A stretch of 64,000 nucleotides of DNA from Escherichia coli (lineage in GTDB: Bacteria; Pseudomonadota; Gammaproteobacteria; Enterobacterales; Enterobacteriaceae): NCBI RefSeq assembly GCF_046105845.1, contig NZ_CP151004.1; one strand, given 5' to 3'. Under the pieces are notes generated by a model that was not told the origin of the DNA, searched no databases, and saw only the letters and a list, made by a program, of their open reading frames with translations. How positions within the stretch are numbered: position 1 is the first letter of the stretch; the number at the start of each line of letters is the position of its first letter. Below are positions 12,664 through 47,787 of the stretch, piece after piece. The position numbers and the translations under genes were made by a program.

Positions 12664-12707
<44 letters not shown>

Positions 12708-36866: not shown

Positions 36867-37879
36867 TTATTGAACGTTGTCGTGAACTGGCGTTGCGAGC
36901 GCCCGCCACAGTGGTTTTTCCGGATGCGTTAGATCAACGTGTGCTGAAAGCTGCGCAATATTTACATCAACAAGGTCTGGCAACGCCCATTCTGGTCGCC
37001 AATCCGTTTGAACTTCGTCAGTTTGCGCTCAGTCACGGCGTGGCGATGGACGGGCTACAGGTGATAGATCCACATGGCAACCTCGCAATGCGGGAAGAAT
37101 TTGCCCATCGCTGGCTGGCCCGCGCGGGCGAAAAAACGCCGCCGGATGCGCTGGAAAAACTCACCGAACCGCTTATGTTCGCCGCAGCAATGGTCAGCGC
37201 CGGTAAAGCGGATGTCTGTATCGCGGGCAACCTCTCTTCCACGGCGAATGTGCTGCGTGCCGGATTACGCATTATCGGCTTGCAGCCAGGCTGTAAAACG
37301 CTCTCCTCCATTTTCCTGATGCTGCCACAGTACAGTGGCCCCGCATTGGGCTTTGCCGATTGCAGCGTGGTGCCACAGCCGACGGCGGCGCAGTTGGCGG
37401 ATATCGCGCTTGCCAGCGCCGAAACCTGGCGCGCCATCACCGGAGAAGAGCCGCGCGTGGCGATGTTGTCGTTTTCCAGTAACGGCAGCGCCCGTCACCC
37501 CTGCGTTGCCAATGTCCAGCAGGCGACAGAAATCGTCCGTGAGCGCGCGCCGCAGTTGGTAGTCGATGGCGAGTTGCAGTTTGACGCCGCCTTCGTGCCG
37601 GAAGTGGCGGCGCAAAAAGCGCCTGCCAGCCCGCTACAAGGCAAGGCCAATGTGATGGTTTTTCCGTCGCTGGAAGCCGGAAATATTGGCTACAAAATCG
37701 CACAACGACTCGGCGGATATCGTGCCGTCGGGCCATTGATACAAGGACTTGCCGCGCCGATGCACGATCTCTCTCGTGGTTGTAGCGTGCAGGAAATTAT
37801 CGAGCTGGCGCTGGTGGCAGCTGTGCCGCGTCAGACAGAAGTAAACCGTGAAAGCAGTTTACAAACACTGGTTGAATGA
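36863..37879 (+). CDS. eutD: Phosphotransacetylase EutD
   Basis: 338 aa PTA-family sequence; start overlaps eutT stop. Confidence 0.93.
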
Positions 37880-37917
37880 ACGGTCCCGTTCTGGACCCTG
37901 ATAAAGAGGAAAGCACA

Positions 37918-38211
37918 ATGGAAGCATTAGGAATGATCGAAACCCGGGGCCTGGTTGCACTGATTGAGGCTTCTGACGCGATGGTTAAAGCTGCGCGCGT
38001 CAAGCTGGTTGGTGTTAAGCAGATTGGCGGCGGCCTGTGTACTGCCATGGTTCGTGGTGATGTTGCAGCCTGTAAAGCCGCGACCGACGCAGGTGCTGCA
38101 GCGGCACAGCGTATCGGCGAGCTGGTATCTGTACACGTTATCCCGCGTCCGCACGGCGACCTGGAAGAAGTCTTCCCGATCGGCCTGAAAGGCGATAGCA
38201 GCAACCTGTAA
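37918..38211 (+). CDS. eutM: Major microcompartment shell protein EutM (BMC-H)
   Basis: 97 aa from ATG 37918 preceded by AAGAGGA; [28 protein letters not shown]. Confidence 0.95.
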
Positions 38212-38317
38212 TCACCCTGTGTGACGTCGATTCGGGCGTCACGCTCTCTCCTTTTTCAGTTTACCTTCCGCGGAGGGTAGGGGGAGCTTTTACCTGAAAT
38301 ACGCCACGGAGGCGGGT

Positions 38318-38605
38318 ATGAAACTGGCAGTCGTCACTGGACAAATTGTTTGTACCGTACGCCATCACGGACTGGCGCATGACAAATTGCTGATGGTGGA
38401 AATGATTGATCCACAAGGTAATCCTGACGGGCAATGTGCCGTCGCCATCGACAATATTGGCGCGGGAACCGGGGAGTGGGTGTTGCTGGTGAGTGGCAGT
38501 TCTGCCCGCCAGGCGCATAAAAGCGAAACGTCACCGGTCGATCTGTGCGTGATTGGCATCGTCGATGAGGTGGTGTCTGGCGGTCAGGTAATTTTCCACA
38601 AATAA
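38318..38605 (+). CDS. eutN: Microcompartment vertex protein EutN (BMC-V)
   Basis: 95 aa (MKLAVVTGQIVCTVRHHGLAHDKLLMVEMID...). Confidence 0.94.
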   Translation: MKLAVVTGQIVCTVRHHGLAHDKLLMVEMIDPQGNPDGQCAVAIDNIGAGTGEWVLLVSGSSARQAHKSETSPVDLCVIGIVDEVVSGGQVIFHK

Positions 38606-38616
38606 GGCAGAACATC

Positions 38617-40020
38617 ATGAATCAACAGGATATTGAACAGGTGGTGAAAGCGGTACTGCTGAAAATGCAAAGCAGTGACACGCCGCCCGCCGCCGTTCAT
38701 GAGATAGGCGTTTTCGCGTCCCTGGATGACGCCGTTGCGGCAGCCAAAATTGCCCAGCAAGGGTTAAAGAGCGTGGCAATGCGCCAGTTAGCCATTGCTG
38801 CCATTCGTGAAGCAGGCGAAAAACACGCCAGAGATTTAGCGGAACTTGCCGTCAGTGAAACCGGCATGGGCCGCATCGAAGATAAATTTGCCAAAAACGT
38901 CGCTCAGGCGCGCGGCACACCGGGCGTTGAGTGCCTCTCTCCGCAGGTGCTGACTGGCGACAACGGCCTGACTTTAATTGAAAACGCGCCCTGGGGCGTG
39001 GTGGCTTCGGTGACGCCTTCCACTAACCCGGCGGCAACCGTCATTAATAACGCCATCAGCCTGATTGCCGCGGGCAACAGCGTCATTTTTGCCCCGCATC
39101 CGGCGGCGAAAAAAGTCTCCCAGCGGGCGATCACGCTGCTCAACCAGGCGATTGTTGCCGCAGGCGGGCCGGAAAACTTACTGGTTACTGTGGCCAATCC
39201 GGATATCGAAACCGCGCAACGTTTGTTCAAGTTCCCGGGTATCGGCCTGCTGGTGGTGACCGGCGGCGAAGCGGTAGTGGAAGCGGCGCGTAAACACACC
39301 AATAAACGTCTGATTGCCGCAGGTGCTGGCAACCCGCCGGTAGTGGTGGATGAAACCGCTGACCTCGCCCGTGCAGCTCAGTCCATCGTCAAAGGCGCGT
39401 CTTTCGATAACAACATCATTTGTGCCGACGAAAAGGTACTGATTGTTGTGGATAGCGTAGCCGATGAACTGATGCGTCTGATGGAAGGCCAGCACGCGGT
39501 GAAACTGACCGCAGAGCAGGCGCAGCAGCTACAACCGGTGTTGCTGAAAAATATCGACGAGCGCGGAAAAGGCACCGTCAGCCGTGACTGGGTTGGTCGT
39601 GATGCGGCGAAAATCGCGGCGGCAATCGGCCTTACAGTTCCGGAACAAACGCGACTGCTGTTTGTAGAAACCACCGCAGAACATCCGTTTGCCGTGACCG
39701 AACTGATGATGCCGGTGCTGCCCGTCGTGCGCGTCGCCAACGTGGCGGATGCCATTGCGCTGGCGGTGAAACTGGAAGGCGGTTGCCACCACACGGCGGC
39801 AATGCACTCGCGCAATATCGAGAACATGAACCAGATGGCGAATGCCATTGATACCAGCATTTTCGTTAAGAACGGACCGTGCATTGCCGGGCTGGGGCTG
39901 GGCGGGGAAGGCTGGACCACCATGACCATCACCACGCCAACCGGTGAAGGGGTAACCAGCGCGCGTACGTTTGTCCGTCTGCGTCGCTGTGTATTAGTCG
40001 ATGCGTTTCGCATTGTTTAA
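38617..40020 (+). CDS. eutE: CoA-acylating acetaldehyde dehydrogenase EutE
   Basis: 467 aa aldehyde dehydrogenase-family sequence with active-site Cys context (NNIICADEK). Confidence 0.94.
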   Translation: MNQQDIEQVVKAVLLKMQSSDTPPAAVHEIGVFASLDDAVAAAKIAQQGLKSVAMRQLAIAAIREAGEKHARDLAELAVSETGMGRIEDKFAKNVAQARGTPGVECLSPQVLTGDNGLTLIENAPWGVVASVTPSTNPAATVINNAISLIAAGNSVIFAPHPAAKKVSQRAITLLNQAIVAAGGPENLLVTVANPDIETAQRLFKFPGIGLLVVTGGEAVVEAARKHTNKRLIAAGAGNPPVVVDETADLARAAQSIVKGASFDNNIICADEKVLIVVDSVADELMRLMEGQHAVKLTAEQAQQLQPVLLKNIDERGKGTVSRDWVGRDAAKIAAAIGLTVPEQTRLLFVETTAEHPFAVTELMMPVLPVVRVANVADAIALAVKLEGGCHHTAAMHSRNIENMNQMANAIDTSIFVKNGPCIAGLGLGGEGWTTMTITTPTGEGVTSARTFVRLRRCVLVDAFRIV

Positions 40021-42044: not shown

Positions 42045-42050
42045 AAGTGT

Positions 42051-42160
42051 ACGGACAGTCCCCTCGCCCCTTTGGGGAGAGGGTTAGGGTGAGGGGAACA
42101 GAGTCGCGCCGGTGCAAACAATTACCCTCACCCCGGCCCCTCGGCTTCCAGAGTGAGGGA
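42051..42160. repeat. Composite GC-rich palindromic repeat in the eutG-eutH spacer (two inverted units)
   Basis: Unit 1 at 42051..42100 is a near-identical copy of 28658..28707; a second unit in opposite orientation (accctcacccc...gagtgaggg) at 42124..42159. Confidence 0.6.
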
Positions 42161-42213
42161 AAAACCCACTTTCAGCATTGGCAATAAATAACAACTAACA
42201 GGGAGTAAAGGTG

Positions 42214-47118: not shown

Positions 47119-47127
47119 GGAGGCATC

Positions 47128-47787
47128 ATGCCAGCTTTAGATTTGATTCGACCGTCGGTAACCGCCATGCGGGTGATTGCCTCCGTTAACGCCGAATTTG
47201 CGCGTGAACTGAAATTGCCGCCGCATATTCGTAGCCTTGGGCTGATTTCTGCCGACTCCGATGACGTAACCTACATTGCGGCTGACGAAGCGACCAAGCA
47301 GGCGATGGTCGAAGTGGTGTATGGCCGCTCGCTGTATGCGGGAGCTGCACACGGACCGTCACCGACTGCCGGTGAAGTGCTGATTATGCTCGGTGGGCCA
47401 AACCCGGCGGAAGTGCGTGCTGGTCTGGATGCGATGGTTGCGCATATTGAAAATGGCGCGGCTTTCCAGTGGGCTAATGATGCGCAAGATACGGCATTCC
47501 TGGCACATGTAGTTTCGCGTACCGGTTCTTATCTCTCATCAACCGCCGGGATCACGCTTGGCGATCCGATGGCGTATCTGGTGGCACCGCCGCTGGAAGC
47601 GACCTACGGCATTGATGCAGCCCTGAAATCTGCCGACGTACAGCTGGTGACCTATGTCCCGCCGCCGTCTGAAACCAACTACTCGGCAGCATTTTTAACC
47701 GGTAGCCAGGCCGCGTGTAAAGCAGCCTGTAACGCCTTTACCGATGCAGTGCTGGAAATCGCGCGTAATCCAATCCAGCGTGCGTAA
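47128..47787 (+). CDS. eutL: Microcompartment shell protein EutL (tandem BMC domain)
   Basis: 219 aa ([38 protein letters not shown]...). Confidence 0.94.

Follow-up and report, generated by a model that had tools for sequence, protein, structure and literature searches.

Conserved RNA hairpins predicted between eutM and eutN, a plausible expression-tuning element of the Escherichia coli eut operon

The stretch of Escherichia coli DNA analyzed here (64,000 nucleotides of contig NZ_CP151004.1, hereafter the window) contains the eut operon, and the list of open reading frames (ORFs) places eutQ, eutT, eutD, eutM, eutN, eutE, eutJ, and eutG around the site of interest, which is the intercistronic spacer between eutM and eutN. 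According to the ORF list and the RefSeq annotation of MG1655 and of a strain with 99.7% identity, eutM (37918..38211, plus strand, ending in the TAA stop codon at 38209-38211) encodes the 97-amino acid major shell hexamer of the BMC-H family, and eutN (38318..38605, plus strand) encodes the 95-amino acid vertex pentamer of the BMC-P family. The spacer itself lies at 38212..38317 on the plus strand and corresponds to positions 2572051-2572156 on the minus strand of MG1655. An earlier sequence-only reading of this DNA gave its length as 106 nt, which agrees with the end of eutM at 38211 and the start of eutN at 38318, and proposed that a partial terminator after eutM sets the ratio of the two shell proteins. 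We found the spacer to be genuinely structured and under selection, and it lies directly 3' of the most abundant shell gene. It is a plausible, fairly ordinary candidate for an expression-tuning element; its hairpins probably stabilize the upstream message and insulate it rather than terminate transcription.

The locus is nearly universal in the species: the 721 bases from eutM to eutE have a match, at 95-100% identity, in 5408 of 5426 complete E. coli genomes, and the spacer is found by blastn (word size 11) in one place per genome in 5407 of them. RefSeq annotates eutM and eutN on either side of the spacer and no feature within it. No covariance model of Rfam 15 matched positions 37500-39000 on either strand up to E = 10, no internal promoter was found in the spacer by a consensus scan, and no discussion of the spacer was found in a literature search. 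In E. coli EC931 (NZ_CP049118.1), only 26% of the eutM-spacer-eutN-eutE query was matched, and the match region is annotated as a BMC domain-containing protein next to an aldehyde dehydrogenase, which suggests a deletion that took out the spacer and eutN. The longest ORF for eutM encodes 111 amino acids (37876-38211) from an upstream ATG that overlaps the eutD stop codon; RefSeq and K-12 annotation place the start of the 97-amino acid form at 37918, where the ribosome-binding site AAGAGGA is present.

The predicted fold of the whole spacer has an energy of -42.7 kcal/mol (z = -2.64), which was equaled by one of 200 shuffled sequences. Four helices are common to the single-sequence fold (RNAfold) and to the RNAalifold consensus of 19 spacers. 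The first hairpin, HP1 (38219..38244, plus strand), has 10 bp in E. coli and a predicted energy of -16.2 kcal/mol by RNAfold, which places it in the top 0.03% of 26-nt segments. It contains the inverted repeat noted in the sequence-only reading, gtgacg at 38221-38226 and cgtcac at 38237-38242 with a gap of 10 nt, and we found it to be present as described. The conserved part is an 8-bp core (38221-38228 paired with 38235-38242, plus strand; GUGACGUC/GGCGUCAC) around the loop GAUUCG. Taken only as first described, such features are weak, as the window holds 25 perfect inverted repeats of 6 bp with a 10-nt loop and 176 perfect 8-bp palindromes; the pattern GTGACGYC-N4-30-GRCGTCAC, which describes the HP1 core, is expected 0.01 times per window. 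The 5' end of HP1 is located 7-9 nt past the eutM stop codon, and its 5' arm would be covered by a ribosome terminating on eutM.

HP1 is abutted by a composite hairpin, HP2 (38243..38287, plus strand; 8+7 bp, -17.9 kcal/mol). The lower stem of HP2 pairs 38243-38250 with 38280-38287 (GCUCUCUC with GGGGGAGC, plus strand), although its register is ambiguous by ~2-3 nt due to the repetitive CU and G arms. An 11-nt internal loop on the 5' side (38251-38261, plus strand) separates it from the 7-bp upper stem, UACCUUC paired with GAGGGUA (38262-38268 with 38273-38279, plus strand), which is closed by a four-base loop (38269-38272, plus strand) that reads CGCG here. Most relatives have UGCG instead, which is a tetraloop of the UNCG type with a closing C-G pair and is found in 13 of the 19 aligned sequences. 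Together, HP1 and HP2 (38219-38287) have an energy of -33.9 kcal/mol, within the top 0.16% of segments. The C/T-rich tract ending in ttttt at 38252-38256 that was pointed out earlier exists as stated; its U5 run (38252..38256, plus strand) lies inside the HP2 internal loop and is not the immediate tail of HP1. An 8-bp palindrome, TCCGCGGA, had also been reported at 38266-38273; it is present one base away, at 38267-38274, and occurs twice in the window. It is not conserved, as K-12 MG1655 and most relatives read TCTGCGGA. Judging from the alignment, the palindrome is incidental, and the conserved part is the 7-bp upper stem around a YGCG loop.

Directly 3' of HP2 is UUUUACCUGAAAUA (38288..38301, plus strand), the sole single-stranded A/U-rich stretch between HP2 and the hairpin at the eutN Shine-Dalgarno (SD) sequence. 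Candidate roles for this stretch include a weak terminator tail, an RNase E entry site, or a ribosome standby site. The segment TTTTACCTGAAA is invariant in the 19 spacers of Escherichia, Citrobacter, and Klebsiella spallanzanii, and UACCUGAA (38291-38298) keeps a fixed distance of 18-19 nt to the eutN start codon in Escherichia/Citrobacter as well as in Buttiauxella and Entomohabitans, although the flanks have diverged. The fourth consensus helix is the SD hairpin CGCC-ACGGA-GGCG (38302..38314, plus strand), a 4-bp stem of CGCC (38302-38305) and GGCG (38311-38314) with ACGGA (38306-38310) as its loop. It hides the 3' half of the eutN SD sequence GGAGG (38308-38312), with a pairing probability of 0.76. 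A putative 5-bp pseudoknot between 38254-38258 and 38295-38299 (UGAAA) is paired in 100% of the alignment with one-sided changes only and is not present in distant genera; we keep it as a possible additional interaction.

To examine the conservation of the element, we scanned one genome per species with EutN, which gave 48 loci, and extracted 42 eutM-eutN gaps. Nineteen spacers from Escherichia, Citrobacter, and K. spallanzanii share the E. coli arrangement (type A) and were aligned. Standard pairs were observed in 98.9% of pair cells (100% for HP1 and 98% for HP2), compared with 50-67% when the partners were slid. Three HP2 pairs show compensatory double changes: alignment columns 51-95 at the base (G-C/C-G), and columns 71-86 (A-U/G-C) and 73-84 (C-G/U-A), both of which belong to the upper stem. 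The HP1 core keeps eight of eight pairs in ten distinct versions from six genera; two of these pairs covary, in addition to the three in HP2, one changing from G-C to A-U in Yokenella and the other forming a C-G/U-G/U-A series. Both hairpins are backed by compensatory changes within the Escherichia/Citrobacter/K. spallanzanii group, and the covariation is supportive rather than overwhelming.

The E. coli spacer shares 79-84% identity with that of Citrobacter or K. spallanzanii, whereas the four-fold degenerate sites of eutM and eutN share 64-68%. At greater distance its identity falls to background (about 45-55%), while HP1 is retained: it is still present in Buttiauxella, Entomohabitans, and Yokenella, its loop length varies from 4 to 20 nt across genera, and its TGACG/CGTCA core shows no change in six genera. 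In Entomohabitans, the position of HP2 is taken by a hairpin whose sequence is unrelated. Among the database entries, enterobacterial eutN genes (87-100% identity) were also found on contigs of 269-466 bp in assemblies labeled Gemelliphila palaticanis, Prolixibacteraceae, and Caballeronia mineralivorans, which are probably contamination.

Only two junctions in the 17-gene operon are long, eutM-eutN (106 nt) and eutG-eutH (169 nt), and the remaining genes overlap or are 9-45 nt apart. In the 42 loci, eutM and eutN lie at least 52 nt apart (median 110 nt); the eutN-eutE and eutD-eutM gaps are 11 and 38 nt. Two kinds of eutM-eutN gap were distinguished among enterobacterial loci. Type A, with the hairpins described above, is found in Escherichia species, the Citrobacter freundii complex, Citrobacter sp. 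R56 and relatives, and K. spallanzanii, and in diverged form in Buttiauxella, Entomohabitans, and Yokenella. In type B, the gap holds one or two repetitive extragenic palindromic (REP) elements, which have the canonical …CTTATCCGGCCTAC motif and may point either way; this type occurs in Salmonella, K. pneumoniae/oxytoca/michiganensis/grimontii, C. koseri/amalonaticus/sedlakii, Pseudocitrobacter, and Pluralibacter. The eutN ribosome-binding site is the sole sequence common to both types. The gap of Intestinirhabdus holds a different G+C-rich palindrome, and three non-enteric loci (Pseudomonas and two Rhodocyclaceae) have long G+C-rich gaps of neither type.

The REP motif is dispersed, with four matches in the window (at 12671, 17328, 29140, and 63568) compared with 0.28 expected when up to two mismatches to CTTATCCGGCCTAC are allowed. 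It was not found in the E. coli spacer, which occurs in one copy per genome and lacks the REP consensus, and the possibility that the spacer is itself a REP or another dispersed repeat was rejected. The other long junction, eutG-eutH (42045-42213, 169 nt), holds a dispersed palindromic repeat (CCCCTCGCCCCTTTGGGGAGAGGGTTAGGGTGAGGGG … CCCTCACCCC) that is found by blastn at a median of 15 places per E. coli genome and is full-length at this site in 1564 of 5426 genomes; this gap has a fold z-score of only -0.81, and we take the repeat to resemble the BoxC-type family.

Relative protein levels are available from label-free proteomics (intensity-based absolute quantification, iBAQ) of E. coli W3110 grown on ethanolamine and B12 (PMC11334477). 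The values are EutQ 100, EutM 96, EutL 39, EutB 37, EutE 27, EutC 24, EutS 11, EutD 10, EutK 8, EutG 7, EutP 7, and EutN 1, so that EutM is the most abundant shell protein (PMC11334477). EutE is 27 times as abundant as EutN although eutE begins 11 nt past eutN, and proteins encoded far downstream reach 24-39% of EutM. EutE, EutB, EutC, and EutL are 2.5 to 4 times below EutM. Because proteins encoded beyond eutN are abundant, a polar drop at the spacer could be at most ~3-fold, and the ~100-fold deficit of EutN must therefore be specific to eutN. The levels are also non-monotonic along the operon, which indicates gene-specific translation. The proposal that a partial terminator sets the EutM:EutN ratio is thus supported in part: a structured element is present and a hairpin-based expression step is plausible, but termination cannot set this ratio when genes downstream of eutN are expressed so far above it (EutE 27 and EutL 39 vs. 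1).

The predicted accessibility of the eutN start points in the same direction. Among the 12 quantified genes, none is predicted to need more energy to open its start region (-18 to +13) than eutN, at 11.9 kcal/mol compared with 5.5 kcal/mol for eutM and 3.9 kcal/mol for eutE, and opening energy is negatively correlated with abundance (rho = -0.59, p = 0.04, n = 12). The eutN AUG is predicted to pair with codons 12-15. In every enterobacterial lineage examined, the start region is predicted to be 40-72% paired with either type of gap, although the partners vary. We also considered a helix of the MS2 type between nucleotides after the eutM stop codon and the eutN start, which was not supported by pairing probabilities: in most loci, the share of the first 18 nt past the stop codon in the pairing probability of this start region is at most 11%. 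The 5' arm of HP1 could alternatively pair with CGUCAC (eutN codons 5-7), but this was uninformative, as species with REP-type gaps have the same codons.

Taken together, these observations lead us to favor, tentatively and with somewhat less than even confidence, the explanation that the spacer is a conserved two-hairpin RNA module of the polycistronic eut mRNA, which provides a passive, post-initiation step in expression from eutM to the genes that follow. We infer that it may combine an exonuclease barrier, a cleavage or termination site, and translational uncoupling. HP1 and HP2 would form a stable 3' cap that shields the segment ending in eutM from 3'-to-5' exonucleases, the capped end being made by cutting within 38288-38301 or, on occasion, where transcription terminates at the U4 that follows HP2, and the cap would raise the level of the eutM message relative to distal genes. 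At the same time, the folded 106-nt gap may separate eutN from the heavy ribosome traffic on eutM, so that there would be no coupling or re-initiation and eutN would rely on its own, partly paired ribosome-binding site. Such an uncoupled, partly closed start, rather than termination, could account for the ~100-fold lower level of EutN. Folding would also hide the C-rich untranslated tract, and RNA polymerase would proceed into eutE through eutR. A stable, conserved stem-loop does lie 3' of the more highly expressed cistron, as is expected of a stabilizer that acts through segmental decay. In the gaps of Salmonella, most Klebsiella, and several Citrobacter, hairpins of REPs or of bacterial interspersed mosaic elements (BIMEs) might do the same job, and the replacement of type-A hairpins by REP/BIME in sister lineages fits a generic hairpin function.

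Several points weigh against this explanation. The covariation reflects few independent events among close relatives, and the majority of stem positions show no variation. TGACG/CGTCA and UACCUGAA are kept more strictly than a passive hairpin would require, and REPs may merely be drawn to a tolerant gap without being functionally equivalent. On the quantitative side, iBAQ is imprecise for a 95-amino acid protein and opening-energy predictions are crude. Proteins encoded upstream are not uniformly high either (EutD 10, EutP 7, and EutS 11), so any stabilizing effect on the upstream segment would be masked by gene-specific translation.

Among the other explanations, we consider it rather unlikely that a partial Rho-independent terminator or attenuator after eutM, formed by HP1 and the C/U tract or, more plausibly, by HP2 and UUUUA, sets the hexamer:pentamer ratio. 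Both HP1 and HP2 are G+C-rich stem-loops within the size range of intrinsic terminators (about 5-14 bp), and HP1 with its tail TCTCTCCTTT is accepted as terminator-like by a simple consensus scan. The tail of HP1, UCUCUCCU, is nevertheless a poor U-tract, with four U in its first 8 nt and C's between them, and doubles as the 5' arm of HP2; moreover, a position 7-9 nt from the stop codon would put HP1 within the footprint of a terminating ribosome. If termination occurs, HP2 followed by UUUUA (38288-38292; tail UUUUACCU, with four consecutive U) is a better candidate than the 3' ends proposed earlier at 38245-38260, just after HP1. Invariance of the UUUUA directly 3' of HP2 is confined to the Escherichia/Citrobacter/K. 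spallanzanii group. Buttiauxella has U-rich tails such as UUUCUUUAAC after HP1, one of which is positive on a d'Aubenton-Carafa-type score. In Yokenella, HP1 is followed by CCCAGAUU with no U-run, and REP-type spacers have no U-tract; hairpin and U-tract are thus not conserved together at orthologous positions. The same score is about -20 for both E. coli hairpins, on a scale that did not cleanly separate control terminators. The levels of EutE, EutB, EutC, and EutL are compatible with modest attenuation, but termination could not yield a deficit confined to eutN. In addition, the promoter upstream of eutS is the main source of transcripts of eutR, the last gene (PMC10433801), and eleven downstream genes including eutBC (the lyase) and the autoregulator eutR need read-through. 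No sense-strand 3' end was found in the spacer in the Term-seq data of Adams et al. (2021), which cover eut-uninduced E. coli only. Weak termination at HP2 is possible, neither as the main determinant of the ratio nor at the site proposed in the sequence-only reading. A low-count 3' end antisense to eutM is recorded at 38151 on the minus strand (MG1655 2572217, plus strand), 61 nt past the spacer (Adams et al. 2021, supplementary file 1); this implies that, in cells without induction, the spacer is transcribed to some extent in the antisense direction.

It also appears quite unlikely that the spacer is functionless, for example palindromic DNA left by a decayed mobile repeat in an insertion-tolerant gap. 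REPs do come and go in the eutM-eutN gap, the eutG-eutH gap holds its own dispersed repeat, and stem positions that are mostly invariant are neutral on structure. Against this, the spacer is single-copy and nearly universal in E. coli, is better conserved than four-fold degenerate sites, preserves pairing through compensatory changes, and keeps a gap of at least 52 nt in all 42 loci, with a hairpin architecture that outlasts sequence identity in Buttiauxella and Entomohabitans. A regulated translational operator for eutN, in which a CsrA-like RNA-binding protein or a small RNA (sRNA) acts on GGA hairpins to tune synthesis of the vertex protein, is improbable in our judgment. Candidate sites are CACGGAGG in the SD hairpin (38305-38312), which we take to fit the CsrA/RsmE core CANGGANG, and the GGA at the loop/stem junction of HP2 (38272-38274). 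The SD context CA-N-GGAGG keeps its flanks while N is C, U, G, or A across genera, the GGAG at the top of HP2 is invariant, and the extra invariance of UACCUGAA and TGACG suggests specific recognition. On the other hand, any strong SD preceded by CA fits the motif, chance alone would give it about once in every 4 kb of each strand, and CC or CG replaces CA in Yokenella, Buttiauxella, and Entomohabitans. CsrA is known to bind the eutS leader, the only place for which binding has been demonstrated, and to control eut in Salmonella (PMC10433801; PMC6347204), which agrees with an operator, but eutN is absent from the Salmonella CsrA CLIP-seq (crosslinking and immunoprecipitation sequencing) supplements that were searched, as are eutM, eutE, and eutS. 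In a further reading, which we regard as distinctly improbable, the spacer is a dedicated stoichiometry device for a protein organelle: a CsrA-like factor or a nuclease would read a sequence-specific structured RNA, built from the TGACG core of HP1, HP2 with its pseudoknot, and UACCUGAA at a constant distance from the AUG, to fix vertex-to-facet ratios, and REPs would have replaced it independently in other enterics. Release of the eutM 3' region as a stable trans-acting sRNA of about 75-80 nt (HP1, HP2, and U4), as known for sRNAs that derive from 3' UTRs or operon-internal regions, is very improbable. Although the element is conserved, it ends in a hairpin with UUUU next to it that looks like an Hfq-type 3' module, and its CU-rich tract is complementary to SD sequences, this tract is sequestered in the HP2 lower stem, REPs take the place of the element in Salmonella and Klebsiella, no annotated sRNA or Rfam match was found at the spacer, and no support was found in a literature search.

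Returning to the two-hairpin module, the known systems closest to it in function appear to be stabilizers of the REP type and of the puf/pap type and leaky terminators within operons, and it matches no Rfam family. REPs are established mRNA stabilizers and mild transcription attenuators, as reportedly described by Newbury and Higgins in 1987 for malE-malF and by Espeli in 2001. The eut spacer resembles the malE-malF case in having stable hairpins in an intercistronic gap directly 3' of the gene whose product is in excess, and orthologous gaps of Salmonella, Klebsiella, and several Citrobacter do carry REP/BIME; it differs in being single-copy, in lacking the REP consensus, and in having its own TGACG/CGTCA, CU/G-rich composite stem, and UACCUGAA. 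In Rhodobacter capsulatus puf (pufBA vs. pufLMX) and E. coli papBA, differences in segment stability lead to unequal stoichiometry from one promoter. There too, an excess structural protein is encoded upstream of a hairpin cluster; stable processed species and half-lives were measured in those systems, whereas the eut spacer is known from sequence and predicted folding. Also unlike puf and papBA, the largest step in eut (EutM to EutN) appears to be translational, since genes further downstream are abundantly expressed. With leaky intra-operon terminators, such as those of rpsU-dnaG-rpoD and the rplL-rpoB attenuator, the spacer shares a hairpin and short U-run between cistrons of differing need, and HP2 with UUUUA resembles a weak terminator. 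Its U-tracts are short or interrupted, though, and are not kept in all lineages with HP1 (Yokenella), and attenuation beyond ~3-fold is argued against. A counterpart of the MS2 replicase case (the Min Jou interaction), in which translation of the coat gene opens a helix hiding the next ribosome-binding site, was not supported for eut.

In microcompartment shells, hexamers are required in large excess over vertex pentamers, and wrong ratios lead to elongated or open shells; deletion of eutN in Salmonella gives elongated structures (PMC12487888). The mechanism by which a ratio of ~100:1 arises from adjacent genes on one promoter has not been described so far for the eut operon. Our analysis suggests that the eutM-eutN gap is the place of the hexamer:pentamer step, mainly through translational uncoupling and mRNA protection and not through termination. 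When the eutSMNLK cassette is transplanted or the operon redesigned, the spacer is therefore worth keeping or replacing deliberately, and the natural swap with REPs offers a ready-made experimental comparison.

Some further candidates in the spacer were considered and rejected. The TGTGA…TCAC in HP1 has a spacing of 14 nt compared with 6 in the CRP consensus, and a CRP site was rejected on reading the sequence. A dimeric DNA-binding site with fixed spacing at the HP1 palindrome is unlikely, given loops of 4-20 nt. Two small ORFs, one of 19 codons on the plus strand (38221-38280) and one of 34 codons on the antisense strand (38242-38138, preceded by AAGGAGAG), were rejected because both run through the HP1 loop, in which length differences are not multiples of three. 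A boxA-like antitermination signal after HP1 was rejected by eye, E. coli matching 6 of 12 positions of GCUCUUUAACAA; the boxA-like match CUCUUUAAC in Buttiauxella is probably due to chance. Elsewhere in the operon, the window has a 3-nt indel relative to strain AST215 between eutC and eutL, at 47121-47131, and coordinates transferred from AST215 shift by 3 after eutC.

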